NCBI GenBank assembly: GCA_000433035.1
Contig: FR890815.1
Coordinates: 21,800 to 85,799, forward strand
Origin: Staphylococcus sp. CAG:324
GTDB taxonomy: Bacteria > Bacillota_I > Bacilli_A > ML615J-28 > CAG-313
Reading direction: 5' to 3'
DNA length: 64,000 nucleotides
Shown here: piece after piece, positions 9,876-32,651 of the stretch
How the letters are laid out: each line of letters opens with the position of its first letter
Numbering within the stretch: the stretch's first letter is position 1
Notes under the pieces: model-generated
What the model was told of the DNA's origin: nothing
Seen by the model: only the letters and a program-made list of their open reading frames with translations
The model's database searches: none
Translations under genes and position numbers: made by a program

Positions 9876-11840
9876 TCATTCTTCAATTGATGTTGAATTA
9901 CCATTGTACCAATCATTTTTAGTATTTTTTAATAAAGCATCGATAATTACATCGGGTAATTTTTCGTTGGGAATTTTTTCAATATTTTGAATTGCAATGC
10001 CATATTTTTTAATAATTTGAGTTAGGTTATTCATATTTTGATTGTTCTTAATTGTTTTTAATTTCGTAATCTTATGGTAAGGGGTATTGTTAATAAACCC
10101 CGTTAAATGTGTATCTAAAGTTGGATTAGAAATCATAAAAATAGTGTTGATCAGATAAATTTTACGATCTTTATTATCTAAAAAGAAAGGTTTTTTGAAA
10201 AGAGTTTTAAAAAAATTTTGGATACTTTGATGGGCACTATTAAAATTTTTAAGAAAAATTAAACTCATGGGATATTTAATTAGGTGTTCAGATAAAATAC
10301 CCCCTTGTTCAAAGCCGACATATCCTTTGCTTGAACCAATTAAATTATTTAACATTGTTATATCGTGAAAATTTTCTAAATCAATTTCTAAATACATTTC
10401 ATTTTTAAATTTAAAGACTTTATTTAAATCGCTTATTAAATAATCGGGATTAAAATCATCTTCTACATATATGACACCCATATTATTTAATTTATAATTG
10501 AATTCATAGCGTTTGATAAATTTTAGATAATTGGTTTTTAATTCAGGATAATTGAGTGATAATAGTTTTAATTTTTTAAGAGATATTTTTTTTACACCAG
10601 TAGTATCTTCAATTACTTCATCAATCAATTTATCAATCGTTTTATGACTTGTTTTTTTTCTAGCTCCAACTTCATCTAAAATATCAATTGCCTTATCAGG
10701 AAAACTTTTATTAATGAGGAATAATTTTGCATTAGTTATAATTTTTTGTAAAGAATATGATGAATATTTGACTTGATGGTATTCCTCATAACTTTGTTTA
10801 ATACCTTCTAAAATTTCATAAGTTTCTGCTTCATTAGGTTCATCAATATAAACGTTTTGAAATCTTCTGGTAAGAGCTTTATCTTTTTCGATAAAACGAT
10901 AATATTCATCAAGTGTAGTAGAACCTATTAATTTAATATCAGAGCGAGATAAATAAGGCTTTAAGATATTGGCAATATCTAGTGATCCATCATTTGAACC
11001 AGCTCCTACAATATTATGAATTTCATCAATAAAGACAATAGCATGATGCTTTTTAATATATTCCATTGCTTTGGTAATTTTTTCTTCTAATTCACCACGA
11101 TATTTTGTACCTGATACAATACTACCAAGATCTAATTGATAAATAGTTTCATTCTTTAAAATTTCTGATAGTCCTTCAATAATAGCAGTTTTACCTACTC
11201 CTGCATTTCCAATAAGTAAAGGATTATTTTTTTGTTTTTTGGACAAAATATATATAATCTTTTCGATATAATTGCTACGTTTAATAAAAGGGTGAACTTT
11301 TTTGGTTTTTGAAAGATTGGTTAAAAAAGGATAGGGTGTAATTTCTAGATCTTCTTTTTCACTAGTTCCTTCAAAAAAGTTAAATATTTCTTCAATGTCA
11401 ATCATTAAGTCTTCAATGTCAAGACCTAGTTTTTCTAAAACAATTGAAGCAATACTATCTTCTTCTTTTAACATTACATAGAAAATGTGTTCATCATAAA
11501 CATATTTACTACCAAGATCTTTTGCAAGTGTTTCTGAATACAAGATGATTTCTTGAAATTTTTTGGTATATGTAAGACTTTGACTATCGCTTTTTCTAAA
11601 AATAACTAAATTGTGAATAACTCTTAAAATATCATCATAGGTAATTTGTTTTTCATCTAAGAGAAAATGGCAGATGGTATCTTTTTTCTTATACATGGCA
11701 AGTAACAAATGCTCACTACCAACTAGCTTTTTATTAAGACTTCTAGCTATTTGTAAGGCATCATCAATAATTTGAATGGCATTTGTACTAAAAGTTTCAA
11801 ACATGTACTCCTCCTTAAAACTTTTTTGTATTACATACAA
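9876..11840 (-). CDS. ClpC-like AAA+ protein with Clp_N repeats and an intact D1 ATPase, but an apparently degenerate D2
   Basis: Clp_N-like N-terminus. D1 Walker A GNAGVGKTAI and Walker B VFIDEIHN. The C-terminal region keeps the D2 tail (GYVGFEQGG) but no second P-loop is visible. Confidence 0.7.
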   Translation of the reverse strand: MYVIQKSFKEEYMFETFSTNAIQIIDDALQIARSLNKKLVGSEHLLLAMYKKKDTICHFLLDEKQITYDDILRVIHNLVIFRKSDSQSLTYTKKFQEIILYSETLAKDLGSKYVYDEHIFYVMLKEEDSIASIVLEKLGLDIEDLMIDIEEIFNFFEGTSEKEDLEITPYPFLTNLSKTKKVHPFIKRSNYIEKIIYILSKKQKNNPLLIGNAGVGKTAIIEGLSEILKNETIYQLDLGSIVSGTKYRGELEEKITKAMEYIKKHHAIVFIDEIHNIVGAGSNDGSLDIANILKPYLSRSDIKLIGSTTLDEYYRFIEKDKALTRRFQNVYIDEPNEAETYEILEGIKQSYEEYHQVKYSSYSLQKIITNAKLFLINKSFPDKAIDILDEVGARKKTSHKTIDKLIDEVIEDTTGVKKISLKKLKLLSLNYPELKTNYLKFIKRYEFNYKLNNMGVIYVEDDFNPDYLISDLNKVFKFKNEMYLEIDLENFHDITMLNNLIGSSKGYVGFEQGGILSEHLIKYPMSLIFLKNFNSAHQSIQNFFKTLFKKPFFLDNKDRKIYLINTIFMISNPTLDTHLTGFINNTPYHKITKLKTIKNNQNMNNLTQIIKKYGIAIQNIEKIPNEKLPDVIIDALLKNTKNDWYNGNSTSIEE

Positions 11841-11943
11841 GGTATTATATGCAAGTCTTTTAAAAGATAGACTCCTGTATTTAAACCTTGCAAAAAAACT
11901 AAAATTGTGTTACAATAATATCCAAAGAAAGAAAGGTGATTAG

Positions 11944-13227
11944 ATGGAAAATGAAATGATAAAGATAAAGACGATAATTGTTGGAGTAAATCATACAAAT
12001 GATGAAGAGTTCAATTATCAAATTCAAGAATTAGAAGCTTTATGTGAGGCTTGTGATTTAGATGTTGTTGCTTCTTTGGTACAAAATATGCCAACACTCA
12101 ATAATGCAACCTATTTAGGAAGTGGAAAACTAGAAGAACTCAAAAATGTAAAGGATTTATACCAAGCTTCTCTTGTTGTCTTTTTAGAAGAATTATCACC
12201 TGTTCAACTTAGAAATATTAAAGATGTAATCGATGTTGATGTGATGGATAGAACGATGCTTATTCTAGAAATCTTTAAAAAAAGAGCGAAGACAAAAGAA
12301 GCGATTTTACAAGTGGAAATTGCCAATTTAAAATATATGTTACCAAGACTAGCAGGCTCTTATACGAATCTTTCTAGACTTGGTGGTGGTGGTAGTGGTT
12401 CAGGTGGAGCAAGAAGAGGAAGTGGAGAAACAAAATTAGAAGAAGATCGCCGTCATATTGAAAGAAGAATTACAAAAGCTGAAAAAGAATTAGCAGAAAT
12501 TGTGGCTAGTAGGAAAAATGCAAGAAAAAAACGTTTGGCTAATGAAATGAAAACAGTTGCTTTTGTTGGTTATACGAATGCAGGCAAATCTTCTAGCATC
12601 AATACGTTAATCCATATGTTTCAAGGTGATAAAAAGAAGGAAGTTTTTGTCAAAAATATGTTATTTGCAACACTTGAAACTGCTACAAGAAGAATCAAAT
12701 TACCGACAAATGAAGAATTTATTATTACCGATACGGTTGGTTTTGTCAGTAATTTACCTCATCATTTAATCGAGTCTTTTAAATCAACTTTAGAAGAAGT
12801 AAAGGAAGCTTCTTTAATTGTACATGTTGTTGATGCTTCAAGTCCTTATGCCAATTTGCAAATTCAAACGACTAATCAAGTTTTAACAAGTTTAGGAGTA
12901 AAGGATATTCCTATGGTTTATTTACTCAATAAATATGATTTAGTAAAGAATGACATGTTTATGCCAACTATCATCGGTGATCAAATTCGAACTTCTAATT
13001 TAGATCAGCGTGGGTTTGATGAATTGATAGCTTATATTAAAGACAAACTTTTTGATGATGTGGTAAAAGTAAAACTATTGATTCCCTATGATAAGGGGGA
13101 AATTTTCAATCTTTTAAAAGAAAAGTCAAATGTGCATGCGTTTTCTTATCATGATGATGGTATTGTAGTAGATACCATTGTAAGTAAATATTTGTATAAT
13201 TTATATCATCAATATGAAATTCAGTAA
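11944..13227 (+). CDS. hflX: GTPase HflX
   Basis: HflX N-domain, glycine-rich GGGGSGSGGARRGSGETKLE linker, G1 GYTNAGKSS, G3 DTVGF, G4 NKYD. Confidence 0.9.
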   Translation: MENEMIKIKTIIVGVNHTNDEEFNYQIQELEALCEACDLDVVASLVQNMPTLNNATYLGSGKLEELKNVKDLYQASLVVFLEELSPVQLRNIKDVIDVDVMDRTMLILEIFKKRAKTKEAILQVEIANLKYMLPRLAGSYTNLSRLGGGGSGSGGARRGSGETKLEEDRRHIERRITKAEKELAEIVASRKNARKKRLANEMKTVAFVGYTNAGKSSSINTLIHMFQGDKKKEVFVKNMLFATLETATRRIKLPTNEEFIITDTVGFVSNLPHHLIESFKSTLEEVKEASLIVHVVDASSPYANLQIQTTNQVLTSLGVKDIPMVYLLNKYDLVKNDMFMPTIIGDQIRTSNLDQRGFDELIAYIKDKLFDDVVKVKLLIPYDKGEIFNLLKEKSNVHAFSYHDDGIVVDTIVSKYLYNLYHQYEIQ

Positions 13228-13363
13228 GAGTCTTATGAAAATAAGATTCTTATTTTTAATTGATTGATATTTTTTTTCCATTTTGCTTTAACAAAACAGA
13301 AGAAAGTGATATAATAAATTATAAAGTGGAGTATTATACATCAAGGTCGATGAGGTAAAAAAG

Positions 13364-16300
13364 ATGAAAAATAAAAATGAAAGAAAATATTATATTCAAT
13401 CTAGAAATCTTCATTTAATGAATATTTTAGAAGAAGATTACTACGTTGAAATTGGTGTCATTGACATGAAAATATTCAATCGAATTCTAAATGATGAAAA
13501 AATCGAATTGAGTGAATTCATTGATTTAGAACTTTTGAGTGATGGAATTGGTAAGATAACAGGTGATCCTATTGCCGATGTATATTATCAATTGAATTAT
13601 TTGATTAATTTAAGATTAAAAAATTCCACTTGTAAATTTTTGTTGACAGCAGGGATTATGAAATATATCGACGATTTGAAGTGTGAAAAATATGCACCAG
13701 TAGTATTAATTCCCTTTGATTTTGACTATCAACATTTAGAAATTATTAAAAATGGTGATCCAGTAATGAATTCTAAGTTGATAAAATATGCTTTGAATGA
13801 TTTAAAAGAAACTTTAAACAATGAAGATAAGCGTTTTTTAGAAAACTATCAAAATCATAAAATTTCAACTGCCAAAGATATCGATGATATTTGTTTAGAA
13901 CTAGCAAGGATAATGAAAACAACAGTGGAACCTATGAGTTATTTAACGATTGCTTTTGTCGAATATCCTGATTTTATTTTAGATAAAGAGTATATGTCCA
14001 TTCAATCATCTATGAATGAAATGACTGAACAGATGATTTTAAATAAATACTATCAGAATATTAAAGGAGTTTTGCCAACCAATACGAATCAAAAATATGT
14101 TATTTTAAAAGCAAGCGATGGAGAGAGATTTGCGGTAGACGGACGTCTAGGTAGTGGCAAAACGTATACTATTATTAATATCATTGCCGATCAAATTGCC
14201 AAAGGAAAAAAGATTCTCTACGTTAATCAAGATTTGGATAATATCTTTGATATTGAAAAAAATTTAACATATTTGGGATTAGGAAATTATACATATAACT
14301 TGACAAAAAACTTGCGGGATATTGAAAAACCAGAACTCATCTTTGATCAAGTTGATGCTAGTAATATTTCTTACAATATTGTCAATGAAATTTTCTTGTT
14401 ACCAAATGCATTGCAAAAAAGAATACATGGATTTAAAATTAACAATGTCTTTGAATATCTAGCCATAATGAAACAAAAATATCTAGATATTAGTCCTATT
14501 TTATTAGAAACTAAATTGGAATATCATGAAGCTGCATGCATTTATCATCAATTAGAAGAAATTGAAGACGCTTTAAAGGTAATTGATTTATATGCAAATA
14601 ATATATGGCATAGGCTTCAAACATCTCATAATAATATTATGGTTGAAGATATTATGAAAAGAACCGAAGAATTATTTCATATTCATCAAGAATTGTATTA
14701 TAAATTAAAAACTTTTATTGTAAAATATGATATTAAAATGCCCACTAGTGTTAGCGATTTATATAAATTGATTTTGCATATTTATAGTTTTGCTTCAATC
14801 AGACCTTTACCAAAGTGGAAAAAAGAAGAAGTTAGAAAAGTTGTACTCAAAGATTTAAGAGAAATCCAAGCTTTAGTAGATATGAATTATACTGTGAATA
14901 AATATTATGAAGCACATATTATGAAAGGCTATAAGGCAGGAAGAATGAAAGAAATCTTTGATATCATTGTGGCTGATCATATGGTAATAGAAGAAGATTA
15001 CAAAACCCAAGATGCCATTTTTGTGAATCGTTTAATTACTTTTGATAATAAGTTAATTTTGCTTTCTAAAGAGATTGCCGATAATATTTTAAGAATGAAT
15101 AATGTTAGTTTAGAACTATCAAGAATTTTTAATTTTAGTGTTTTAAATGAACAAACTTATTTATTTTTTAATAGTTTAAGTAACTTTTTATCTACAATAA
15201 AGTTTAATAGTTTAATTTTTGAAACTTATCGAACACTTCCTGCTATTTTTACTAAACATGGTGAAGAAATTTTAAAAAATTATGAAATATATCAAACAGA
15301 AAAAAATTTTCTTCCTAAATATATAAACCAAATGGAATTTTTAACTAAAGATAGTATTGAATTTGCTTTTCAGCGGAAAAATGTGGAAAAAGCTTTTCAT
15401 CTTTTTATTAATCGTAAAGCTGTTAAGAAGGATCACTTAGAATTAAAAGATATAATAGGTAGAATCAAAAGATATAATGATGCAATGCAGGCAATTGAGT
15501 TGAAACTAAATGAAGTCTTCAATGTGAAAGATTTTGATGAAGAATTTATCAACACTTTTATCCATTTTTATCAATATAGTGTTAGTCTCAACATTGTACA
15601 AAAAACATATTTTCAGATATTTTTAGAAAAACTATCAAAAGAAAAAAATCCTACGAATTATGTAAAGAAAGTGAATCATCTCTTAAAAGATTTTAAAGAT
15701 GAAGGGTACCGAACTACAAGTATTTGTACAACACTTCGAAACTATCATATTCATATTATCGATGGTAATATTTTTGATAAAGTTGAAAAATTGAAAATTT
15801 GGAATGAATATCTAAAAGAAGTAGATGCTTTAAAAGATGAAATAAAAGTAATTTTTAATGGTATTGCTAGCGTAACTTATGATGATATGGTAAGTTTGAT
15901 AAAAATTGATAATCAATATCAAAATTTATTGACAACTTTAAATCAGAATGCGGAACGTTATAAAGAAAATTTAGGTAAATATTATAAAGGATTAGATACG
16001 ATTATCAATGAAATTGGTAGAACAATTGAGCACTATGATGAATTTATCAAAATGCTTAATCATAAAACAATTTTAGATGATATTTTCAAAGAAGAGCAAT
16101 TCAATTCTTTATTAGATGATACTAAAGTGTTAGATGCACTTTATTCAAAATGGAATAGTAGTTTTAGACAGTTTGCGGTATGTTTCAAAGGAAGTCAACC
16201 AGAATTGCTTACGAATAGTTTTGAAACGAATTATAAATTATTTAAACAATTTATGGATAAGACCTCTCAAATTCAACCAATTTTAAAAATCAATGAAATA

Positions 16301-17641
16301 ACAGAAGAATTTTTAAAATATGGTTTGAAAAATTTATCAGAAGGAATTAGAAGTTGCAAATATGGAAAAAACATTTCAAAACAATTTATATATTCTGTTT
16401 TAGTTGAAAATTACAAAGAAGCGATTTCCAATTATCCTGTTTTGAATCAACCTTATCTAGAACTAGAGAAAATTAGTCAATATCAAACATTTGAAGCCGC
16501 ATATTGTCAAAACAATATTAAAGAACTCATTAAAAATAGCAATGAGTTTAGAAAAAATAATGGATATTACCATAATATTGAATTCAATAATTATAATAAA
16601 TTAATTCAAATGATGACCAAAACCGTTCAAGTTTTCTTTAGTGATTTGGATATTTTTAATGGTGATTTAGATTTAGATCCTTTTGATTTGGTTATTATTG
16701 ATGATGTTCATTTATCAACTTCTAATAAATATGGTCGTTTATCAGAATGTCGACAAGTGATTGTTTTTGGTGACCGTCTTTTTCAAACATCCGTTTCTAA
16801 TGCTTTAATGAAAAGACTTGGTGATATGTGCACAATATCTTACTATCGAAGATATGTTTTGGCTAATTCTAAATTTAATAATAATTGGGATTATACAAAT
16901 CAATATATATATTCATATGATAATCGGTATAATATTGTAATGAGTGATACATTTGATGATTTTATCAAAGATATTTTTAATCGATTTAAAGCACATCCCA
17001 AACACATTATGAACATTATTGTAGCCAAAGAACAAACAAGAAGAAAGGTGTATACGTCGGTTGTCAATATCTTAATGGGTAGTTTTTCTCCAGAAGAAAT
17101 CATCAATATCTTATGTTATAATATTAGAATTTTAAATGCTTTGACTGAAGGAAATCGCTATGTGAATGATGTTTTTATGTATTATGATGATTTTAAAGAT
17201 TTAGAAAATTCAGTAAAAGAATTGATTTTTAAAAATTTTATCACTGCTCATAATAGTGTAGTTTTATATTTTATGAAAAATAGAATTGAAGCTGAAAATT
17301 ATAATACGAAATTATCCATTCAGCGTTCAATTGGCAGAAGTATAAATAATTATGAAAAGAATAATGGCATTATTGAAATTGTAAAGAATGCAATTTTAAA
17401 AAGGGGAATAAAGGTTGAATATAGTTTTGGTGGATTTGATTTAGTTATTAGGAAAAAAAGTCCTCTTGGAATCATCATTATGGGTAAAGAAAATGAAAAT
17501 ATGAATACTTTTATTGATGATTATCAATATTATCATAATGAATATGAAAAACGGGGTTGGCAAGTAAAAGTGATTTATACGCTCGATTTATTTCTTTCAT
17601 TTGATAAAGTAATTCATGATATTGTGAAGGAAGATGAATAA
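13364..17641 (+). CDS. Giant (1425 aa) SF1/Upf1-like helicase-related protein with a C-terminal DUF559/Vsr-like REase-fold domain
   Basis: Intact Walker A GRLGSGKTYTI. Motif II-like DLVIIDDVH. Degenerate downstream helicase motifs (VIVFGDRLFQ). C-terminal GIIIMGKENEN...RGWQVKVIYTLD matches the DUF559/DUF3320 'GWxVxR' end domain. Resembles the DUF4011/AAA_11/AAA_12/DUF3320 family of giant uncharacterised proteins. Confidence 0.6.
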   Translation: MKNKNERKYYIQSRNLHLMNILEEDYYVEIGVIDMKIFNRILNDEKIELSEFIDLELLSDGIGKITGDPIADVYYQLNYLINLRLKNSTCKFLLTAGIMKYIDDLKCEKYAPVVLIPFDFDYQHLEIIKNGDPVMNSKLIKYALNDLKETLNNEDKRFLENYQNHKISTAKDIDDICLELARIMKTTVEPMSYLTIAFVEYPDFILDKEYMSIQSSMNEMTEQMILNKYYQNIKGVLPTNTNQKYVILKASDGERFAVDGRLGSGKTYTIINIIADQIAKGKKILYVNQDLDNIFDIEKNLTYLGLGNYTYNLTKNLRDIEKPELIFDQVDASNISYNIVNEIFLLPNALQKRIHGFKINNVFEYLAIMKQKYLDISPILLETKLEYHEAACIYHQLEEIEDALKVIDLYANNIWHRLQTSHNNIMVEDIMKRTEELFHIHQELYYKLKTFIVKYDIKMPTSVSDLYKLILHIYSFASIRPLPKWKKEEVRKVVLKDLREIQALVDMNYTVNKYYEAHIMKGYKAGRMKEIFDIIVADHMVIEEDYKTQDAIFVNRLITFDNKLILLSKEIADNILRMNNVSLELSRIFNFSVLNEQTYLFFNSLSNFLSTIKFNSLIFETYRTLPAIFTKHGEEILKNYEIYQTEKNFLPKYINQMEFLTKDSIEFAFQRKNVEKAFHLFINRKAVKKDHLELKDIIGRIKRYNDAMQAIELKLNEVFNVKDFDEEFINTFIHFYQYSVSLNIVQKTYFQIFLEKLSKEKNPTNYVKKVNHLLKDFKDEGYRTTSICTTLRNYHIHIIDGNIFDKVEKLKIWNEYLKEVDALKDEIKVIFNGIASVTYDDMVSLIKIDNQYQNLLTTLNQNAERYKENLGKYYKGLDTIINEIGRTIEHYDEFIKMLNHKTILDDIFKEEQFNSLLDDTKVLDALYSKWNSSFRQFAVCFKGSQPELLTNSFETNYKLFKQFMDKTSQIQPILKINEITEEFLKYGLKNLSEGIRSCKYGKNISKQFIYSVLVENYKEAISNYPVLNQPYLELEKISQYQTFEAAYCQNNIKELIKNSNEFRKNNGYYHNIEFNNYNKLIQMMTKTVQVFFSDLDIFNGDLDLDPFDLVIIDDVHLSTSNKYGRLSECRQVIVFGDRLFQTSVSNALMKRLGDMCTISYYRRYVLANSKFNNNWDYTNQYIYSYDNRYNIVMSDTFDDFIKDIFNRFKAHPKHIMNIIVAKEQTRRKVYTSVVNILMGSFSPEEIINILCYNIRILNALTEGNRYVNDVFMYYDDFKDLENSVKELIFKNFITAHNSVVLYFMKNRIEAENYNTKLSIQRSIGRSINNYEKNNGIIEIVKNAILKRGIKVEYSFGGFDLVIRKKSPLGIIIMGKENENMNTFIDDYQYYHNEYEKRGWQVKVIYTLDLFLSFDKVIHDIVKEDE

Positions 17642-18181
17642 ATGAAGGCAAAAGCAAATAAAAAGGAATTATCCATTATTATTAATGAAATGAAGAAACC
17701 TTCACCTAAAATAACCTATATCAAAAAAATATTAAAGCAATATCGAATAGCTGACATCAATTTGAATAGTAAATATTATCATGGTAAAACCTTACTTCAT
17801 TATGCTATCGAATATAATTTGAATTGTTTAATTCAACCTTTTATTCAAAGTGGTTGTAATCCCAACATTTGTGATGACAATTATCTTTCTCCGCTTCATC
17901 TTGCGGTAATCAAGAAAAATGCCAAAGCCATTAAAATTCTTATCAAAAATGGAGCCGATATTAACATAACTGGAGAATTTGAACAAACGCCACTCCATCT
18001 AGCAACTACTTATGGAAATTTGAAATTTATGAAATTGTTAATTCATAACAATGCTGATATTATGCAAGTTGATGAGAAAAATTTATCAGTTTTAGATTAC
18101 GCAAATGATGAAAAAGATTTAAAAATTATTGATTATTTGAATAAAAAAAGAAATACTCAAAAAGGAGAAGAGAAATGTTAG
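17642..18181 (+). CDS. Ankyrin-repeat protein (about 4 ANK repeats)
   Basis: ATG immediately follows the upstream TAA. Repeated GxTPLHxAxxxGxxxxxxxLLxxGAD pattern (GKTLLHYA, LSPLHLA, QTPLHLA). Confidence 0.8.
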   Translation: MKAKANKKELSIIINEMKKPSPKITYIKKILKQYRIADINLNSKYYHGKTLLHYAIEYNLNCLIQPFIQSGCNPNICDDNYLSPLHLAVIKKNAKAIKILIKNGADINITGEFEQTPLHLATTYGNLKFMKLLIHNNADIMQVDEKNLSVLDYANDEKDLKIIDYLNKKRNTQKGEEKC

Positions 18182-18960
18182 ATTTACTTAAAGAACATAT
18201 AGCATCTTTAAATTATGGATGGGTCAGTTTTGTTTTTGAAGTTTTAATTGTTATTTTTGCAATCATTGCAATTAGTATTATTTTGGTAAGACATGTTCGT
18301 TCAAAACATATTTTCATATCCTATCTTGTTACTCTTATATTACTATTGATTAGTATAATTGTAGGTACAACCATAGGTATTTATATTACTTTAATTGCTT
18401 TTATTTTATTGAGTTTTATGACAATTTTATATTACTTACCAGAATATAAAAAGTTATTTTCTAAAAAAATCGTAAGAAAACCATCAAAAGAGTTTTTATC
18501 AGATCAAGAAGTAAAAGAAGAACTAATTGAAACGTTAATTAAAGCAGCAGAACACCTCGCTAATAGAAAAATTGGTGCGATTATTACAATTGAAAAAGAA
18601 CATACGTTAAACACTTTAGTTGAAGGATCAGTAAAACTTGATGCTTTGGTTACTTTTGAATTATTGGAAACCATTTTTCATCCAAACACCGCTTTACATG
18701 ATGGGGCTGTCATTATTAGAGGAAACAGAATAAAATGTGCTAGTGCCTTTTATCAACCTAGTCAGAAGAAAGATATTCCTCAACATTATGGCTCAAGACA
18801 TCGTGCTGCTATTGGCATTAGTGAACAAAGTGATGCATTTACTATTGTTGTATCTGAAGAAACTGGTCATATTGCTACTACCATTGGGGGGACTATTACA
18901 GGAAATGTTTCATTAGAAAGTCTTAAAACCTCACTAGATCAACAATTAATTGTTAGATAG
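18175..18960 (+). CDS. cdaA: Diadenylate cyclase CdaA (c-di-AMP synthase), membrane-anchored
   Basis: Start overlaps the ankyrin stop (ATGTTAG). Three N-terminal TM helices. DisA_N/DAC motifs ALHDGAVIIRG and RHRAAIGISEQSDAFTIVVSEETG. Confidence 0.9.
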   Translation: MLDLLKEHIASLNYGWVSFVFEVLIVIFAIIAISIILVRHVRSKHIFISYLVTLILLLISIIVGTTIGIYITLIAFILLSFMTILYYLPEYKKLFSKKIVRKPSKEFLSDQEVKEELIETLIKAAEHLANRKIGAIITIEKEHTLNTLVEGSVKLDALVTFELLETIFHPNTALHDGAVIIRGNRIKCASAFYQPSQKKDIPQHYGSRHRAAIGISEQSDAFTIVVSEETGHIATTIGGTITGNVSLESLKTSLDQQLIVR

Positions 18961-18975
18961 AAAGGAAGGATATTT

Positions 18976-20196
18976 ATGAATATGCTAGCAATTTTTACTA
19001 ATTTTAGTTCAGGACAAATTGTAGCAATTATTTTGTTAACGGCTTTTATTTTAACAGTTTGGTTAGTAAAGTTTTTTTGCCTTAGTAGGATAAACATAAT
19101 TGATTTATCAATTACAATTGTGCTTTTCCTTCTTTGTTTGTTTGTTGATTTGAATGAAATTTTAATTATCATTTGTATTATAGTGAATAGTCTTGATTTG
19201 GTTTATGCTTTATTAGATTTGGCATTGTATGTGTATATGAAAAATGAAATTAGTCAAAAAACAATTGACTATATTAAAAATACGGAATATGATTTTTTTA
19301 TTCAAATGGATAAAAAAGAAAATATTCTAGATTGTAGCAATTCATTATTAAAACTAACTAAACTGTCTAAAAAAGAAGTTTTAAATATGAAAGGTTGGAA
19401 ATTTATTTTTGATAGTTTTGATATTAAAACACTGAATAAGGAAGAATTTTCTTTAAACTATGTAGCACAATTTTTAGCCGAATTTAAAGAATGCAATAGT
19501 AAACATAAAAAATATAAGTTTCAAATGGAAGCTGAACTACAAAATCCTAATAATCTTGATGAAATTAGTATCATTAAATATGATGCAATTATTCAACCTG
19601 TTTTTTGTGGTAAAATGTTGGTGGCAAGAAATATCTTTTTCTATCAAGATAAAGTAGCAGTAATTGAAAAATTAAAAGGAATTGTTAGATCGGCTTGTAC
19701 AGATTTAGAAGATGCTTATCTACAACTTGATGTAATGATGGGTTTATCAGAAGGAATTGTCATGTATTATGATTTTCAAAATAAGGTATATGTTGCAACC
19801 GAATGTATGAGACTATATACAAAAACAACAAAAAAAGAATATACTTTTGAAGAACTATTTTCTCATATTCATCCAGATGATGTACACGCATACATTGAAC
19901 AAGCGGAAACTGTGAATAGTATGTCAATTACTAAAATAAAATATCGCATGCAAATTGGCGATATTTATTATCAAGTTGAAGAAGATTCTATTTATATGCG
20001 AAAAGATTATGGTCTCATTTCTATTATTAGAATTGCGGAAAAAAGTGTCACGCAAAGTATGCCTCAAAATGCTAAAATTCAAAATGATTTAGAAATTTTG
20101 AACAATCTAGCAAAGAAAGACATTACTACGACGATTGATAAAACCGATGATATTTTAAATATTGTCTTAGGAGAGAAAAAAGATGAAGAAGATTAA
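18976..20196 (+). CDS. Membrane protein with two cytoplasmic PAS-like segments. Occupies the position usually held by cdaR.
   Basis: N-terminal TM helices. Two PAS-like stretches (around KKENILDCSNSLLKLTKLSKKEVLNMKGWKFIFD and GIVMYYDFQNKVYVATECMRLY). No YbbR-like sequence. Confidence 0.55.
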   Translation: MNMLAIFTNFSSGQIVAIILLTAFILTVWLVKFFCLSRINIIDLSITIVLFLLCLFVDLNEILIIICIIVNSLDLVYALLDLALYVYMKNEISQKTIDYIKNTEYDFFIQMDKKENILDCSNSLLKLTKLSKKEVLNMKGWKFIFDSFDIKTLNKEEFSLNYVAQFLAEFKECNSKHKKYKFQMEAELQNPNNLDEISIIKYDAIIQPVFCGKMLVARNIFFYQDKVAVIEKLKGIVRSACTDLEDAYLQLDVMMGLSEGIVMYYDFQNKVYVATECMRLYTKTTKKEYTFEELFSHIHPDDVHAYIEQAETVNSMSITKIKYRMQIGDIYYQVEEDSIYMRKDYGLISIIRIAEKSVTQSMPQNAKIQNDLEILNNLAKKDITTTIDKTDDILNIVLGEKKDEED

Positions 20197-21322
20197 GGCT
20201 ATTTTGTTAATGGCAGGTGCGTCAACTAGATTTCATAGTAATCGTAATAAAACAATCTATCAAATCAATCAAAAGCCATTATATTTATATAGCCTAGATT
20301 TATTTTATCAACATCCTAAAATTGCGGCAATTACAGTAGTATGCCATCAAACTATTATAGATGAAGTTTATGAAACAATCAAACAAAATTACGATTTAAC
20401 AAAAATTACTTTAGTTGAAGGAGGAAAAACGAGATTAGAAAGCGTTCAAAAAGCTTTAAACAATATGGTGAGCGATGTTGTTCTCATTCATGATGCTGCA
20501 AGACCGCTCATCACCAAAGTGGATATTGACAATCTAATTGAACAAAGTAGCTTTTTTTCCTGCGGAAGTTTATATCATCCTATTTATGATACGGTTAAAC
20601 AAACAACAAGTAAGGTGAAAACACTTGATCGAAATGAGTTAAAGGCTGTTTCAACGCCGCAATTTTTTACTCAACCATTATATGAAACTATCTTAAAAGC
20701 AAGTGATAATTGTAAAAATATAACAGATGAATTGCAATTATTTGAAACTAATTTTGATATTGCTTTTGTTGAAGAATCCAGAAAAAATTTAAAAGTTACC
20801 ACTTTAGAGGATTTGGAGTATGTCAATTATATCTTGACTAAAAATAATATATATAAAATTGGGCATTCTTTTGATTTTCATCCATTTGCTAAGGATCGTC
20901 TTTTATATCTTGGAGGTATTTCCTTTGATGTGGGTTTTGGTTTAATGGGGCATAGTGATGCTGATGTTGTATATCATGTTGTAGCTGAAAGTATGATGGG
21001 AGCTTTAGAAATGGGAGATTTAGGAACTCTTTTTCCAGATACGGATAGGCAATATTTAAACAAAGACTCTTGTTATTTTGTAAAAGAAGTTGTTAAAAAA
21101 TTAAATCAAGAAAATTTTGTTATTGAAAATATAGATATTATGATTTATTTAGAAAAACCTAATCTTAAAGAGTATAAATCTATCATGGCTAAAAATATCA
21201 AAAAGTTAACGAATTGTAATTATATTAATGTGAAGGCAACTACTCTAGAGAAAAAAGGTTTAATTGGAACTGGAGAAGGAATTGCAAGTGAAGCGGTTGT
21301 CTTAATTAAAAAAGTAATTTAA
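20183..21322 (+). CDS. ispDF: Bifunctional 2-C-methyl-D-erythritol 4-phosphate cytidylyltransferase / 2-C-methyl-D-erythritol 2,4-cyclodiphosphate synthase
   Basis: N-terminal IspD (LMAGASTRF, HDAARP). C-terminal IspF (IGHSFDFHPF, GHSDADV). Overlaps the upstream gene. Confidence 0.9.
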   Translation: MKKIKAILLMAGASTRFHSNRNKTIYQINQKPLYLYSLDLFYQHPKIAAITVVCHQTIIDEVYETIKQNYDLTKITLVEGGKTRLESVQKALNNMVSDVVLIHDAARPLITKVDIDNLIEQSSFFSCGSLYHPIYDTVKQTTSKVKTLDRNELKAVSTPQFFTQPLYETILKASDNCKNITDELQLFETNFDIAFVEESRKNLKVTTLEDLEYVNYILTKNNIYKIGHSFDFHPFAKDRLLYLGGISFDVGFGLMGHSDADVVYHVVAESMMGALEMGDLGTLFPDTDRQYLNKDSCYFVKEVVKKLNQENFVIENIDIMIYLEKPNLKEYKSIMAKNIKKLTNCNYINVKATTLEKKGLIGTGEGIASEAVVLIKKVI

Positions 21323-21372
21323 AATTACTAAAAATAGTATTTGAATAATATAATAAAATAGAAGGTGTGTAT

Positions 21373-22008
21373 ATGAAAAAATTCTTACTTCTATTTTTTA
21401 TTTTTTTAATTCCTATTTTATTATTGACCATGATTGATAATTATTTTAGTAAAAAATCTGATTTGTATATTGAAAAAGAAGTAACGACGATTATTTCGGA
21501 TATTTTAGCAGAATCAATTGAAAAAAATAATGTTTTAAATGATACAGATAATATTTTAAATTATAAGTATAATACAGATGGGAAAATCAGTAGTATCTAT
21601 ATAGATAGTACCAAAACAAGTAAAATAATTTCTTCTATGAATTTAACATTGTCAAAATTGTTGAGGGATGGTACAATTGAAGAATCAGTCAAAGATATCA
21701 ATATGCCGCTTGGTATGCTTGTATCCAGAGCATTGTTTACCACTTTAGGTCCTGATATCAAAATAGAAGTGTTGCCGGTTTCTTCATATCAGACGGATAT
21801 ATATACAAATCTTGTTGATTATGGTATTAATAATTCTTTATTTGAATTGTATCTGAAAGTAAATATTAAGGTTGAAACAATTATTCCTTTAAAAACATCT
21901 CAAATTGATTATCATACAAATTTGTTACTTTCATCCATTGTTATTCAAGGAGAAGTTCCATATTACTACTATATGGGAGAAGGAGCCATCCAATCGTTAC
22001 CACTTTAA
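21373..22008 (+). CDS. Membrane-anchored hypothetical protein (possible YunB-like)
   Basis: Start placed at the ATG at 21373 after GAAGGTG. N-terminal signal anchor. No firm motif. Confidence 0.45.
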   Translation: MKKFLLLFFIFLIPILLLTMIDNYFSKKSDLYIEKEVTTIISDILAESIEKNNVLNDTDNILNYKYNTDGKISSIYIDSTKTSKIISSMNLTLSKLLRDGTIEESVKDINMPLGMLVSRALFTTLGPDIKIEVLPVSSYQTDIYTNLVDYGINNSLFELYLKVNIKVETIIPLKTSQIDYHTNLLLSSIVIQGEVPYYYYMGEGAIQSLPL

Positions 22009-22015
22009 AATAAAG

Positions 22016-22055
22016 AAAAATACAATATCAATGAAAAATGATATTGTATTTTTTT
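22016..22055. terminator. Bidirectional rho-independent terminator
   Basis: 15-bp stem AAAAATACAATATCA / TGATATTGTATTTTT flanked by A/T runs, between convergent genes. Confidence 0.55.
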
Positions 22056-22100
22056 AATTTTTAAGATATTCACATGATTGATTATATTTAATCATAGTAT

Positions 22101-22478
22101 TTATGCAACCTCAGCTTCTCCTTCTGGAGTTTTTTCTTTAAAAATAGTATAACCAAGAAGAATCGTTCCGACTAAAATAAAAACACTTCCTGTTAATCTT
22201 ATTTTTTCTAGCGTATTGTCGTAGTTTACTTTTTGTTTGCTTTCAATATAAAACTCATAATTTCTTTTAACAAAATATATATATAATAAGATGGAAATGA
22301 CTATAATCAAGCGATATATTTTTAGGGCATTAGAAATTTGTGAAATATCGCCGATAAGAATTGCGTTTTCAATAATTGCATTTGCTCTAATATTTAAAAG
22401 ATTTAGTATAATAAAAATAATAGATAAATTGTCTTCAAATTTGAGTCTTGTATAAGTTTGGGTTGATTGATTATTCAT
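22101..22478 (-). CDS. Small integral membrane protein, function unknown
   Basis: 125 aa with three predicted TM helices and no recognisable domain. Only long minus-strand ORF in this interval. Confidence 0.45.
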   Translation of the reverse strand: MNNQSTQTYTRLKFEDNLSIIFIILNLLNIRANAIIENAILIGDISQISNALKIYRLIIVISILLYIYFVKRNYEFYIESKQKVNYDNTLEKIRLTGSVFILVGTILLGYTIFKEKTPEGEAEVA

Positions 22479-22589
22479 ATTAATATATATGAAAAAGATA
22501 CTTTAATTATACAAAAGTAAAATGAAAAACAAATTTTAACCTAAAATAAATAAAATGGTGTATAATAATAAAGAAAAAGGTGAATGTAA

Positions 22590-22838
22590 ATGAATAACGA
22601 TAAAACAATTAAATTAATAAAACAAACAATTAAAAAATTAAGACCCTATCTGAATGCCGATGGTGGTGATTTAGATTTTGTTAAATTTGAAGATGGTATT
22701 GTTTATGTTAGACTTCTTGGAGCTTGTATTGGCTGTTCATCAAGTGATGATACAATCACCAATAGCGTTGAGGCATTGTTATTAGAAGAAGTGCCAGGCG
22801 TCATTGGTGTAGAAGTAGTAGAAGAGGAAAGCATATGA
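22590..22838 (+). CDS. NifU-like (Nfu-type) Fe-S cluster scaffold domain protein
   Basis: RBS AAAGGTGA. CxxC in LLGACIGCSSS, typical of the NifU C-terminal domain. Confidence 0.8.
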   Translation: MNNDKTIKLIKQTIKKLRPYLNADGGDLDFVKFEDGIVYVRLLGACIGCSSSDDTITNSVEALLLEEVPGVIGVEVVEEESI

Positions 22839-27141: not shown

Positions 27142-28776
27142 ATGGCAACAAAAAACAATTTACCTATGAGTGAAATCGGTGCTCATAACAAAAAGGTATT
27201 CAGCCGTATCCGTACAACAATTGAAAGTGCATTTTATCGTAACAATGTTGTTGAAGTAACATCTTTAGCACAAGCGTATGAACTTGCAAAAAATTCAAGT
27301 GGAACAATTGTAACTGATCAACCCATTGTAAATCCTGAAAAATTTGGATTACCTAAAGATGCTAAAGTTTTACTTTATAATGATGGGAAAGTAACAGGAC
27401 GTCAAGCAAAATTACGCCGTTTAGTAGATGAAACGAATGTTGAAGAATATGCTGGATATGTTCGTGAAGTTGTATTTGCATCACGCAATAAAAAGATGTA
27501 TCACGCTATGGCATATGTAGGTCTTGATAAGAAATTTATGTTAAAAGCCCATTTATTAGTACCAGAAGGATATGAAAATACCTTATATTCTTGGATTTTA
27601 AATTTCCAAACTGTTAATGAAGAATATACTAAAATGTATCATGATTCTCTTGTTTTAGATGAAGGGGATATCTATATTTATTCTGATCCAGATATGTATA
27701 CAGATCGTTTCCCAGAAGGACTTGCTTTATTTGATCAAGCTCACAATTGTGCTATGATTTGTGGTATGAGATATTTTGGTGAACATAAGAAAGGTACATT
27801 GACACTTGCTTGGAGTATTGCGGAGAGAAATGGTTATACTGCATGCCATGGTGGACAAAAACGCTTTAATTTCAAAGATGGTTCATCAACTGTCATTGGT
27901 GTATTTGGTCTATCTGGTTCTGGTAAATCAACAATTACTTTATCAAATCATGGTGGTAAACTTGACACAACTGTTTTACATGATGATGCATTTATTATTT
28001 CTAATAAAGATTGTTCTTCCATTTCACTTGAACAATCATATTTTGATAAAACTCAAGATTATCCACTAGACAATCCTCAATCAAAATATTTCTTGACTAT
28101 TCAAAATTGTGGTGCCACTCGCAACAATGAGGGGAAACTTGTACCAGTGACTGAAGATATTTGTAATGGTAATGGTCGTACTGTTAAATCAGTTCTTGCA
28201 ACAGGAAATCGTGAATATGCATTTAATACTCCGGTTGATGCTATCTTTTGGATTATGAAAGATAAATCACTTCCTCCTGTTGTAAAAGTAAATGATCCTG
28301 CTTTAGCATCAGTTATGGGTGCAACTCTTGCTACAATGCGTTCTACTGCTGAACAAGTATCAGCGGATGAATTGAATAAACTTGTTTTCGTTCCATATGC
28401 TAATCCATTTAGATTATACGAATTACATAAGGATTATGAACATTTTAAACAATTATTTGAAGAAAAGCATGTTGATTGCTATATTATCAATACTGGTTTC
28501 TTCTTAGATACAAAAGTTACACCAAAAGTTACGCTTGGTTTAATTGAAGAAATTGTTCAACATCAAGCAAAATTTGTTCCATTTGGACCATTTACACAAC
28601 TTGAATATTTACCACTTGAAGGATATGAAGTAAACTTTGGTGATAAAGAATATCTTGAACTTGTTAAAAATCAAATGGCATCAAGACTTGATTATGTGAA
28701 TAGTTTAAAAGGTACACGTGAAGAATTACCTACTGATGCAGTAGAAGCAATTAAAAAAGTTACTACTGAATGCTAA
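27142..28776 (+). CDS. pckA: Phosphoenolpyruvate carboxykinase (ATP)
   Basis: RBS GAGGAGG. ATP-PEPCK kinase-1a P-loop GLSGSGKST. 544 aa. Confidence 0.9.
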   Translation: MATKNNLPMSEIGAHNKKVFSRIRTTIESAFYRNNVVEVTSLAQAYELAKNSSGTIVTDQPIVNPEKFGLPKDAKVLLYNDGKVTGRQAKLRRLVDETNVEEYAGYVREVVFASRNKKMYHAMAYVGLDKKFMLKAHLLVPEGYENTLYSWILNFQTVNEEYTKMYHDSLVLDEGDIYIYSDPDMYTDRFPEGLALFDQAHNCAMICGMRYFGEHKKGTLTLAWSIAERNGYTACHGGQKRFNFKDGSSTVIGVFGLSGSGKSTITLSNHGGKLDTTVLHDDAFIISNKDCSSISLEQSYFDKTQDYPLDNPQSKYFLTIQNCGATRNNEGKLVPVTEDICNGNGRTVKSVLATGNREYAFNTPVDAIFWIMKDKSLPPVVKVNDPALASVMGATLATMRSTAEQVSADELNKLVFVPYANPFRLYELHKDYEHFKQLFEEKHVDCYIINTGFFLDTKVTPKVTLGLIEEIVQHQAKFVPFGPFTQLEYLPLEGYEVNFGDKEYLELVKNQMASRLDYVNSLKGTREELPTDAVEAIKKVTTEC

Positions 28777-28810
28777 TTTATAGCATAAAATTTTTTGAAG
28801 GAGAATCACA

Positions 28811-30205
28811 ATGAGTGTTAAAATCGTTGATACTTGTTTAAGAGATGGGCATCAATCACTTCTTGCTACTCGTCTTACGACAGAAGATATTTTACCAATT
28901 GCAAGTCTTTTAGATAAGGCTGGGTATTATGCTTTAGAAGTTTGGGGAGGAGCAACCTTTGATGCATGTCTTCGTTTCTTAAATGAAGATCCATGGGAAA
29001 GATTACGAGCAATTCGTAAAGCTTGTCCTAATACTAAATTACAAATGTTATTTAGGGGACAAAATATTTTAGGATATCGCCATTATTCAGATGAACTTGT
29101 TGAAAAGTTTGTTCAAAAATCATTAGAAAATGGAATTGATATTATTCGTGTTTTTGATGCCTTAAATGATTTACGTAATTTAAAAAGTGCAGTTGATGCT
29201 ACGAATAAATATAAAAAACAGTATGGCGGTCACTGCCAGATTGCCTTATCTTATACAACAAGTCCTGTACATACTATTGATTATTATGTATCACTGGCTA
29301 AAGATGTTGAAAAAATGGGGGCTGATTCTATTTGTATCAAAGACATGGCAGGAGTATTACTTCCAGCCGATGCCTATGAATTGATATCAAAAATGAAAGC
29401 AGCTGTTAAACTTCCACTTGAATTGCATACACATTGTACTGGTGGTGTTGCTGAAATGACAGTGATGAGAGCTATTGAAGCGGGTATTGATATTGTTGAT
29501 ACTGCTTTATCGCCACTTTCAGGAGGTACAAGTCAACCATGTACGGAGGCTTTAGAATATGTACTTCAAGGAACTCCATACGATCCAAAATTAAATTTAG
29601 AATATCTTAAAAAGGCATGCGATAAATTAACTATTGTCAAAGATCGTTTTCTTGCTAATGGTGGATTAAATCCTAAAGCTTTAACTACCAATCCTAATAT
29701 TTTAAAGTATCAGGTTCCTGGTGGTATGCTTTCTAATTTGATGAGTCAGTTAAAAGGGCAAGGAGCAATGGATAAATATGAAGAGGTTTTAAATGAAATT
29801 CCTCGAGTTAGAAAAGATTTAGGTTATCCTCCTCTTGTTACCCCCCTTTCACAAATGGTTGGTACACAAGCTGTTATGAATGTTATTAGTGGTGAACGAT
29901 ATAAGATGAGTCCTGCTGAGGTTAAGGCATATTTAAAAGGCGAATATGGCAAAGCTCCTGCTTCAATTGATGAAGATATTCGTAAAAAAATTATTGGTGA
30001 TGCTTTAGTGATTACGCATCGTCCAGCCGATGATATTGCACCTGAATTTGATGCGATGAAAGCAAAATATGCAAATATTGTAAAATCAGATGAAGATGTT
30101 TTATCATGTGCATTATTTGAAAATGTTGCAGTAAAATTCTTAGAAAATCGTAATGCACCAACATTACAAGATGAAGTAGAAGAATTTGATGTATTAATTG
30201 GTTAG
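28811..30205 (+). CDS. Oxaloacetate decarboxylase alpha subunit, carboxyltransferase (5S/HMGL-like) domain only, without a fused biotinyl domain
   Basis: HMGL-like TIM barrel (VKIVDTCLRDGHQS, metal-binding HTHCTGG). Ends with a PycB-type association region but no AMKM biotinylation site. Confidence 0.85.
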   Translation: MSVKIVDTCLRDGHQSLLATRLTTEDILPIASLLDKAGYYALEVWGGATFDACLRFLNEDPWERLRAIRKACPNTKLQMLFRGQNILGYRHYSDELVEKFVQKSLENGIDIIRVFDALNDLRNLKSAVDATNKYKKQYGGHCQIALSYTTSPVHTIDYYVSLAKDVEKMGADSICIKDMAGVLLPADAYELISKMKAAVKLPLELHTHCTGGVAEMTVMRAIEAGIDIVDTALSPLSGGTSQPCTEALEYVLQGTPYDPKLNLEYLKKACDKLTIVKDRFLANGGLNPKALTTNPNILKYQVPGGMLSNLMSQLKGQGAMDKYEEVLNEIPRVRKDLGYPPLVTPLSQMVGTQAVMNVISGERYKMSPAEVKAYLKGEYGKAPASIDEDIRKKIIGDALVITHRPADDIAPEFDAMKAKYANIVKSDEDVLSCALFENVAVKFLENRNAPTLQDEVEEFDVLIG

Positions 30206-30212
30206 GTGAATT

Positions 30213-30917
30213 ATGAAAAAAGTTATCAGATTTATATCAATGTTTATCGTCTTAACCTTTACACTTGTTATTTCAGGATGTAAAGAGGAAAGACCAACAT
30301 TTGATAAAAAGAATTTTACTGAAAATGGGGAAGTAGTTGTTGAAGTCAAAGAAGGATATACATTTGTAGGATATCTCAAAAATGATATAGATAATAAGAC
30401 TGCTATTCTATATTTACCAGGATCAACTATTCCTCAAGGTGAATATGAAATTATATTTGTAGAAGATAGTAAAGTAAATCAAACAACAAAGGTCTATTCT
30501 TATCCTGAAATAGCAAATGATGGATTAACTTTTGCTGGATGGTATACAACAAATGATTTCCAAAAAGGTACAAGAGTTTCGACTAATAATAATCAAAGTG
30601 CCAATATTTTGTATGCAAGATATATCACATTTGCTGATGCATGCTTGGTTGCTCTTGTATGTATATTAATTGTATTTTTGATGCTTGCACTTCTTTGGGG
30701 TGTTGTTTCACTATTTAAATATTTAGCACCAAAAACTAGTAATGAAAAAGTTAATACAAAAGAAAATAATACGATTGTAAATACCCCTAAAAAAGTTTTT
30801 ACAATGGCAGATATTACTGATGATGATATGATGGTTGCCACACTTGTAGCGACGATTGCATATCGTAATGAAACACATGAGAATGTTAGAGTTGTTTCGG
30901 TTAAACAAATAGGATAA
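30213..30917 (+). CDS. OadG-family gamma subunit of a Na+-pumping decarboxylase, with an N-terminal lipoprotein-like extension
   Basis: The central TM (LVALVCILIVFLMLALLWGVVSLF) resembles the OadG anchor. N-terminal signal with lipobox VISGC. Positioned between the alpha and biotin carrier genes. Confidence 0.5.
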   Translation: MKKVIRFISMFIVLTFTLVISGCKEERPTFDKKNFTENGEVVVEVKEGYTFVGYLKNDIDNKTAILYLPGSTIPQGEYEIIFVEDSKVNQTTKVYSYPEIANDGLTFAGWYTTNDFQKGTRVSTNNNQSANILYARYITFADACLVALVCILIVFLMLALLWGVVSLFKYLAPKTSNEKVNTKENNTIVNTPKKVFTMADITDDDMMVATLVATIAYRNETHENVRVVSVKQIG

Positions 30918-30928
30918 GGAGAAAAAAC

Positions 30929-31285: not shown

Positions 31286-31291
31286 TAATTT

Positions 31292-32464: not shown

Positions 32465-32506
32465 AAACTCCTATTTATATTGAAGAATATAAATAAAAAT
32501 TCTTAT

Positions 32507-32542
32507 AAAAAAGTAAGAATTTTCGTTCTTACTTTTTTATTT
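32507..32542 (+). terminator. Strong rho-independent terminator after the decarboxylase operon
   Basis: AAAAAGTAAGAA-TTTTCG-TTCTTACTTTTT followed by TATTTT. Confidence 0.6.
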
Positions 32543-32651
32543 TACAAGATAAAATGGAAGAATCGGATCCATATTTTAAAATAAATATAATACAACAAGT
32601 ATTATTCTTTTATTTTAATAGGAGAAATGATATAATATATTTGGTGATAAA

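Follow-up and report, generated by a model that had tools for sequence, protein, structure and literature searches.

What is the gene for a giant helicase-like protein doing upstream of a gene for a diadenylate cyclase? The question is raised by a 64,000-nucleotide stretch of the assembly of Staphylococcus sp. CAG:324 (contig FR890815.1, positions 21,800 to 85,799; the whole stretch is referred to here as the window), in which a gene for a 1425-amino-acid (aa) protein, called the giant below, is followed by a gene for a small ankyrin-repeat protein and by cdaA. The second messenger concerned, c-di-AMP (cyclic diadenosine monophosphate), is essential to many Firmicutes, and CdaR and GlmM are the only route by which the control of CdaA, its main synthase, is understood. 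The reading proposed here, to which an about even chance is given, is that the giant, the ankyrin protein and CdaA would form one unit controlling c-di-AMP synthesis, comparable to the RadA-DisA and CdaR/GlmM-CdaA partnerships. It is supported by the conservation of the gene order of the three, of their junctions and of the motifs of both the nucleoside triphosphate (NTP) site of the giant and the active site of CdaA. The genes concerned are as follows.

13364-17641, + strand, giant gene (1425-aa open reading frame, ORF)
17642-18181, + strand, ankyrin gene (179-aa ORF)
18175-18960, + strand, cdaA (261-aa ORF)
18976-20196, + strand, p406, a membrane-protein gene (406-aa ORF)
20183-21322, + strand, ispDF (379-aa ORF)
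21367-22008, yunB, after ispDF, co-directional and tightly packed

Conservation of gene order

The five genes between 13364 and 21322 run in one direction with successive junctions of +0, -7, +15 and -14 nucleotides (nt). The ATG of the ankyrin gene stands right after the TAA of the giant gene with no gap, the ATG of cdaA (18175) lies inside the final 7 nt of the ankyrin gene (ATGTTAG), and the last 14 nt of p406 are shared with ispDF. An earlier reading of this DNA, the original prediction, had described these ORFs and these three junctions, all of which were reproduced from the sequence; the further overlap that it reported between cdaA and the PAS-membrane gene p406 was wrong, the two being separated by 15 nt.

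The arrangement (dus, hflX, clpC-like)-giant-ank-cdaA-p406-ispDF-(yunB) was recovered from about 40 species-level genomes, down to 28% identity of the giant. These metagenome-assembled genomes carry the NCBI labels Mollicutes, Bacilli or Acholeplasmatales, and the host clade is an uncultured, low-GC one within the Bacilli that is probably RF39-like. Across 40 orthologous loci every junction measures about -20 to +20 nt. Seven more distant giant loci (20-28% identity, GC 0.28-0.43) all keep the giant-ankyrin pair, and six of them, which are all those whose contig reaches far enough, keep giant-ankyrin-DAC, with junctions of -20 to +2 nt. The tight junctions are not due to chance, because they are kept in the 40 orthologous loci and also in seven much more distant ones.

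In total, the order giant-ankyrin-cdaA is found at about 47 loci, and among these there are five or more distinct sets of neighbouring genes upstream or downstream. Three distant loci (L041, L077 and L078) have SpoIID upstream and, downstream, MGS together with a transmembrane (TM)-PAS-GGDEF protein, 5-FTHF cyclo-ligase and separate ispD and ispF genes. L079 has Flg_new proteins upstream and 5-FTHF cyclo-ligase, ispDF and sbcDC downstream, with no PAS gene; L080 has NUDIX upstream and 2Fe-2S/hydrogenase-type genes downstream, with no ispDF; and L076 has RNR and hflX upstream. The position after cdaA, which is taken by p406 and then ispDF in the window, is held at distant loci by MGS, 5-FTHF cyclo-ligase or a 2Fe-2S protein. 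Every member of the giant family on a long enough contig has cdaA downstream of the giant gene. Since the three genes persist while all other neighbours change, the invariant unit is giant-ankyrin-CdaA. A YbbR/CdaR gene or glmM follows cdaA in none of the loci examined, and neither gene occurs anywhere in the 64-kb window. The original prediction had named the cdaA-cdaR-glmM order in relatives as the result that would count against it; this order was looked for, and the relatives keep giant-ankyrin-cdaA instead.

Several observations weigh against joint function. Two lineages, L018 and L027, have no ankyrin gene, the giant gene running into cdaA at a distance of 2-8 nt, and because both keep the giant-cdaA pair without it, the ankyrin adaptor would have to be dispensable or replaceable. 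The loci may all come from a single broad clade, so that phylogenetic inertia contributes to the conserved order. Adjacency within a clade is no proof of joint function either, since ispDF, for which a functional tie is unexpected, is mostly linked too. Lastly, mirror-tree residuals (0.54 for giant-cdaA, 0.40 for giant-ispDF and about 0 for the ankyrin protein) do not separate cdaA from the ispDF control.

These last results also fit a different explanation, co-transcription without joint function, in which the giant, with or without the ankyrin protein, would work on DNA or RNA as a lineage-specific repair, recombination or RNA-quality factor and would simply share the operon of the essential cdaA, like ispDF. 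The close, co-directional packing of ispDF and yunB agrees with it, as does the failure of the mirror-tree residuals to single out cdaA. The interval between the clpC-like gene and ispDF is moreover, though suggestively only, the slot that radA-disA-yacL fill on the Bacillus subtilis map, between clpC and ispD/ispF; nothing was found in the literature on the gene order clpC-radA-disA-yacL-ispD. Because the block sits in this repair-gene slot, the giant could be a nucleic-acid enzyme. However, the three genes remain side by side when all other neighbours, ispDF and clpC included, change, the start/stop overlaps at both junctions persist at CdaA identities of 36-39%, and an ankyrin adaptor has no obvious role beside a stand-alone helicase. 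Simple co-transcription is regarded as a possible but somewhat doubtful explanation.

Family and fold of the giant protein

Direct searches with the giant protein give weak matches. In Pfam there is no match at threshold, with sub-threshold ResIII and DEAD around the P-loop. The NCBIfam models ProA (E 2.5e-17, 61.6 bits against a cut-off of 1500) and Hhe (E 4e-8, 31 bits against a cut-off of 2000) match the surroundings of the P-loop only, too weakly for assignment to either equivalog; PDC-S37 of PADLOC also matches around the P-loop below threshold (E 7e-20), and a profile search of the PDB returned SMUBP-2 only, as a marginal match (E 0.012). Since the direct Pfam, NCBIfam and PADLOC matches are sub-threshold, homology was taken from profile-profile alignment with hhalign. 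The comparison set consisted of canonical DUF4011 helicases of about 1950 aa from Paenibacillus and Clostridia, recovered by a genome scan, with the architecture DUF4011 - AAA_11 (split by an insert) - AAA_12 - REase_MTES_1575 - DUF3320. Alignments of 23 giant homologs and of 20 canonical helicases are colinear over aa 22-1439 (Prob 99.4%, E 3e-21). The features of the giant, some of them taken from an AlphaFold2 (AF2) model, are listed below; the tail is of restriction endonuclease (REase) type.

13622-13810, + strand, DUF4011-like core, N-terminal domain, aa 87-149, 'EKYAPVVLIPFDFDY' (hhalign 96.8%, E 3e-10)
14141-14164, + strand, Walker A/motif I GRLGSGKT, aa 260-267 (G260, G265 and K266 invariant)
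14366-16618, + strand, insertion into RecA-like domain 1A, about 750 aa long and entirely helical, aa ~335-1085 (helices only in the AF2 model)
16694-16711, + strand, Walker B/motif II IIDDVH, aa 1111-1116, replacing DEAS (D1113 invariant, D1114 nearly so)
16946-17368, + strand, degenerate RecA-like domain 2A, aa ~1195-1335 (alpha/beta fold in the AF2 model)
17369-17638, + strand, REase (MTES_1575/Vsr-like) tail, aa 1336-1425 (hhalign 91%, E 1e-6)

Taken region by region, the alignment is strongest around motif I in the N-terminal part of 1A (hhalign 99.5%, E 2.6e-22), and it extends to the motif II/III region in the C-terminal part of 1A (95%, E 3e-8) and to the helical insert, which aligns with the shorter insert of the canonical proteins (84%, E 7e-6). 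Motifs I and II of superfamily 1 (SF1) are split by the long helical insert as in AAA_11. Domain 2A has no significant similarity to the canonical AAA_12 region (hhalign 0.4%), and no region of the giant aligns with DUF3320, the protein stopping about 30 aa past the REase-like domain. The Pfam DUF4011 model stays below threshold in the giant of the window and matches weakly in seven of the 23 family members. Among the domains that the original prediction had proposed to look for, DUF4011, the AAA_11 region and the REase tail were recovered by hhalign, with Pfam below threshold, and AAA_12 and DUF3320 were not.

The AF2 model of aa 226-1425, built on 97 sequences (predicted local distance difference test score, pLDDT, 87), has a RecA-like 1A domain with the helical insertion, after which come another alpha/beta domain and a tail that is likewise alpha/beta. 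Foldseek matches the whole model with the Upf1-like superfamily 1B (SF1B) helicases IGHMBP2, SETX/Sen1, Aquarius, Upf1 and SLFN11; structure searches gave no specific match for the insertion of about 750 aa. Searched exhaustively with phmmer, 1.84 billion representatives yielded about 70 full-length clusters of the giant (1380-1510 aa; clustering at 50% identity), down to 20-23% identity; all further matches were to ordinary helicases and confined to the P-loop. Sample blocks that contain the exact protein number 173, and the longest contig carrying it measures 388 kb.

Judged by these profiles, the giant is related to the DUF4011/AAA_11/AAA_12/MTES_1575 helicase-nuclease family, which includes Hhe, but has diverged strongly and become shorter. 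Hhe (NCBIfam NF042953) is a single-gene anti-phage system, and it is listed as a defence system with 'DUF4011 domain-containing protein' (PMC11232893); nothing relevant was found in the literature on the function of DUF4011 or Hhe. The giant resembles these proteins in its colinearity, in a homology that takes in the DUF4011 core, motifs I and II with the insert, and the REase domain, and in its Upf1-like SF1B fold. Unlike them, it is about 500 aa shorter, lacks the N-terminal region of about 450 aa as well as DUF3320, and has DDxH and FGDxxF motifs, no motif VI arginines, a 2A domain that its sequence does not reveal and a variable nuclease acid. It also differs from the canonical DUF4011 helicases in being a vertically inherited core gene fixed beside ank-cdaA; neither ank nor cdaA was found beside the canonical genes.

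Motifs kept and lost

The translation of the giant holds GRLGSGKT (aa 260-267), IIDDVH (1111-1116), GDRLFQ (1136-1141) and RGWQVKVIYTLD (1397-1408), so that every motif quoted in the original prediction was found. Invariance was judged on 30 sequences spanning the giant family, members at 20-23% identity included. All 30 share Q243 (Q motif), G260, G265, K266, D1113, Q1131 and G1136, the last two of which follow Walker B, with G1136 being the remnant of motif III ('FGD'). Elsewhere the helicase signature has changed: the canonical DEAS has become DDxH and GDPKQLPP has become FGDxxF(Q), which reads FGDRLFQ in the window. The giants of the clade to which the window belongs have no counterpart of the canonical motif VI 'RRLNVAVSRAR'. 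Both GDxxQLPP of motif III and the motif VI arginines of AAA_12 are thus missing, with a RecA-like fold still predicted.

The original prediction of an intact P-loop, of a DUF559/Vsr-like tail (here an MTES_1575 REase-like one) and of degenerate helicase motifs otherwise is borne out by this comparison, with QLPP and the motif VI arginines lost and 2A without sequence signal. Because the helicase motifs beyond the P-loop are degenerate, a role as NTP-dependent switch or scaffold is likelier for the giant than one as processive helicase. On the most economical reading, which we infer from the motifs, it would be a switch or scaffold that binds NTP or hydrolyses it slowly, and its binding of nucleic acid may persist; the scaffold suggested earlier gains comparative support in this way as a candidate role.

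The nuclease that had been offered as the alternative is not supported. Position 1373, which aligns with the catalytic Asp of the canonical 'LLDG', is Met in the giant of the window and variable among 97 homologs (E in 30, I in 22, V in 16, L in 13, Y in 7 and M in 3). Of the 97 close homologs, 91 retain the first Asp, D1359, which distant members have lost. The domain itself is homologous to REase_MTES_1575 and does not keep its conserved acidic catalytic residues. Judging from these alignments, cleavage cannot be the conserved function of the giant family. About 30 of the 97 homologs have D...E-G-K at the REase-like site (aa 1359-1375), a plausible PD-(D/E)xK, where the giant of the window has M-G-K. 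Some sublineages might retain cleavage, and nuclease competence may differ among them.

The ankyrin protein and the cyclase

The ankyrin protein is identified by Pfam (Ank_2 E 5e-34; three Ank repeat matches at 2e-21). Read from its sequence, it has about four repeats, is cytoplasmic and has no hydrophobic N-terminus. Orthologs occupy the same position in 39 cases. At distant loci the assignment comes from Pfam searches on four proteins and from an existing Pfam match for L076, the distant proteins being 35-41% identical to that of the window. No paper on a link between an ankyrin protein and CdaA was found among the searchable literature.

The cyclase of the window matches DAC (Pfam, E 2e-38), and TIGR00159 (CdaA) is by far its best DAC model, at 162.4 bits, which lies under the equivalog cut-off of 188.8. 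A derivation from DisA was considered and rejected, the CdaA model scoring 1e-47 and the DisA model 2e-7. The protein carries LHDGAVII and GSRHRAA, with DGA in 40 and RHR in all of 41 orthologs, and has three N-terminal hydrophobic stretches (aa ~15-38, 45-63 and 66-86, read from the sequence). By its motifs, the cyclase is a CdaA-type membrane diadenylate cyclase that is catalytically intact. CdaA proteins of the distant loci are 36-39% identical to that of the window over most of their length, the one of L077 reaching 50% when the DAC domain is compared by itself, and the best 120 CdaA homologs all fall in the same clade. The two lineages that lack the ankyrin gene were noted at 12311-13126 (L018) and at 12491-13336 (L027); in L027, CdaA has DGG in place of DGA, and its giant measures 1499 aa.

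Descent and selection

Comparison with a 92%-identical ortholog gives ratios of non-synonymous to synonymous substitution (dN/dS) of 0.076 for the giant, 0.099 for ank, 0.065 for cdaA, 0.087 for p406 and 0.078 for hflX. Distances between pairs of giants follow the corresponding ones for dus, clpC and hflX (r 0.79-0.91). For both the giant and p406 the rate of evolution is about double that of their neighbours, the mean distance of the giant being 1.46 against 0.56-0.89. The flanks hold dapF, a Na/Ala symporter, an aminotransferase, dus, the clpC-like gene and hflX on one side and yunB, tsaEBD, rimI and pckA on the other; they consist of housekeeping genes, with no integrase or other defence gene. 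GC content is 0.25-0.34 across the window, which is uniformly AT-rich, and composition is unbroken around the region from the giant to ispDF. The region giant-ankyrin-cdaA-p406-ispDF is a vertically inherited core operon, and the giant is, like its neighbours, under purifying selection of housekeeping level.

These data bear on two further explanations. The giant might be an Hhe-like anti-phage protein that still serves in defence, sensing phage nucleic acid with its essential neighbours either captured or used as output. Its named relatives are solely anti-phage proteins (ProA and Hhe in NCBIfam, PDC-S37 in PADLOC), and some candidate defence systems include an ankyrin protein (PADLOC has PDC-M72A and an 'Ankyrin' model, NCBIfam has MzaA). 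However, the scores are tiny beside the family cut-offs (61 against 1500 bits and 31 against 2000 bits), the nuclease site is not conserved, and the gene has descended vertically in a fixed position in about 40 species, with normal composition, housekeeping flanks and a dN/dS equal to that of housekeeping genes. A role in defence is considered very improbable, and the idea of a defence-like module that captured essential genes finds no support, given vertical descent, purifying selection, matching composition and the core-gene setting.

Alternatively, the gene could be a decaying relic of a helicase-nuclease that survives as a spacer or leader for the essential genes downstream. The loss of motifs III and VI and of the nuclease site would agree with decay, as would the roughly twofold rate, but an intact ORF of about 1400 aa in about 70 clusters at 50% identity, a dN/dS of 0.076, invariant residues at the NTP site and a confident AF2 model (pLDDT 87) leave this explanation with next to no credence. 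Low dN/dS, vertical descent, core flanks and about 70 full-length clusters together argue that the giant is neither a decaying relic nor part of a mobile defence island.

A possible route to control of CdaA

In the established system the cdaA-cdaR-glmM operon encodes a complex, with the genes for CdaR and GlmM just downstream of cdaA and their products binding CdaA and regulating it (PMC8573169). CdaR acts via the membrane region of CdaA, and GlmM acts on the DAC domain (PMC8573169, PMC10804225). The locus of the window resembles this system (PMC8573169) in its CdaA, a membrane protein whose N-terminus forms three helices and whose DAC domain is intact, and in having operon mates that could regulate by contact. 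In contrast, cdaR and glmM are not adjacent; an NTPase and an ankyrin protein are encoded upstream and, in the clade of the window, a PAS-PAS membrane protein downstream.

A second parallel is provided by RadA and DisA, whose genes share an operon (PMC10804225, PMC8573169), with radA directly upstream of disA and the helicase RadA binding and inhibiting DisA (PMC8573169, PMC10804225). Here too the gene for a helicase-type NTPase lies upstream of a diadenylate cyclase gene in the same operon, and in most species of the clade a clpC-like gene stands before the block and ispD/ispF after it; the resemblance is positional and functional only. Unlike DisA, the cyclase of the window is CdaA-type and has no HhH DNA-binding domain, and neither protein belongs with DisA or RadA; the giant NTPase is of SF1B/DUF4011 type, in contrast to the RecA-like/Lon-like RadA, and an ankyrin gene stands in between.

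By these analogies, the ankyrin protein would be an adaptor that bridges the giant NTPase and CdaA, and the nucleotide state of the giant, possibly also its nucleic-acid-bound state, would raise or lower c-di-AMP synthesis. The membrane-anchored p406 might be a second, lineage-specific partner of CdaA, offering a cytoplasmic PAS input in the usual place of cdaR. Protein-protein regulation of CdaA, which the original prediction had already suggested, has support from the comparisons and is likewise something that we infer.

A bolder version of joint control can be imagined, in which an Hhe-type antiviral helicase-nuclease has been domesticated as a sensor of nucleic-acid or NTP state and gates the essential CdaA via a dedicated ankyrin adaptor. 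Such a 'split DisA' would tie c-di-AMP to DNA or RNA status, and it could possibly still serve the core genome as a switch for abortive infection, one that makes potassium and osmotic homeostasis collapse on encountering foreign nucleic acid. This proposal is speculative and seems unlikely.

What is new here is a putatively domesticated, degenerate DUF4011/Hhe-type protein together with a candidate set of partners for CdaA. An uncultured and abundant gut clade appears to use an ankyrin protein, a giant NTPase and in part a PAS sensor instead of the CdaR/GlmM arrangement, and if the three proteins interact they would represent a new class of diadenylate cyclase regulator and also show plainly how core signalling can take over a helicase-nuclease of defence type.

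The downstream genes p406 and ispDF

No Pfam or NCBIfam model matches p406 at threshold, the Pfam PAS models included. Its AF2 model (25 orthologs, pLDDT 74) has three transmembrane helices, two alpha/beta PAS-like domains and a short helical tail, and Foldseek assigns it to the PAS fold (LOV-PAS-HK 6ph4, E 3e-11; HIF/ARNT and many PAS-PAS structures). PAS_9 was found in one ortholog. The protein has no output domain, and by the positive-inside rule its PAS domains are predicted to face the cytoplasm. Equivalence to YacL (PIN-TRAM) or to CdaR (YbbR) was rejected, as the soluble part is a tandem PAS. Distant homologs of about 510-520 aa have an extra C-terminal GGDEF (L077 14030-15592, L041 13219-14772 and L078 14023-15555), and in these three loci an MGS-like gene separates cdaA from the PAS-GGDEF gene. 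The GGDEF of L077 passes the Pfam cut-off (5e-8), its motif looking degenerate by eye. From these comparisons, p406 appears to be a clade-specific addition, a PAS-GGDEF protein minus its output domain.

IspDF is bifunctional, with matches to IspD (1e-39) and YgbB (IspF, 8e-48) in Pfam. The gene is linked in most loci and missing from the L080 context, and it is probably a passenger, a co-transcribed, frequent but dispensable neighbour.

Promoter and upstream genes

One further feature lies upstream of the giant gene.

13288-13315, + strand, promoter-like site TTAACA-16 nt-TATAAT with an upstream TG (TTAACA-16-TGnTATAAT), a consensus match only

The site ends 49 nt ahead of the giant ATG and is the top + strand match in 13100-22700 (11/12). 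No terminator-like sites were found in 13100-22700 by a scan that demands at least three G-C pairs per stem. The hflX/clpC-like pair (9876-13227) is inverted in the window and in its two closest relatives (L001 and L002) compared with all other species, in which the clpC-like gene reads straight into the giant gene. Because of this inversion, the giant gene needs a promoter of its own in the sublineage of the window, for which 13288-13315 is a good candidate.

The ClpC-like protein (9876-11840, - strand), whose gene neighbours the giant gene in most species, has only 654 aa. Its second AAA+ module appears degenerate, the Pfam AAA_2 match being limited to profile positions 25-122, and by eye the second half has neither a GPTGVGKT-type Walker A nor a DE Walker B.

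Other genes of the window

Beyond the operon, 27142-36949 encodes PEPCK followed by a complete oxaloacetate decarboxylase (OAD) set (HMGL-like/PYC_OADA alpha, OAD gamma, biotinyl carrier and OAD beta) and, after this set, a dltABCD-like cluster made up of an AMP-binding protein, a 76-aa carrier, an MBOAT protein and a 323-aa protein. A type IV pilus/competence-like cluster at 37379-45825 contains N_methyl pilins, a prepilin peptidase A24, T2SSF and a T2SSE/MshEN ATPase, along with a 604-642-aa protein that has a weak N_methyl match. From 45909 to 64000 there is a long co-directional run of large ORFs (556, 688, 1054, 608, 421, 530 and 823 aa), mostly without a Pfam match apart from Flg_new/LRR_5, Big_2 and one ABC ATPase, which is probably a surface-protein or transporter locus.

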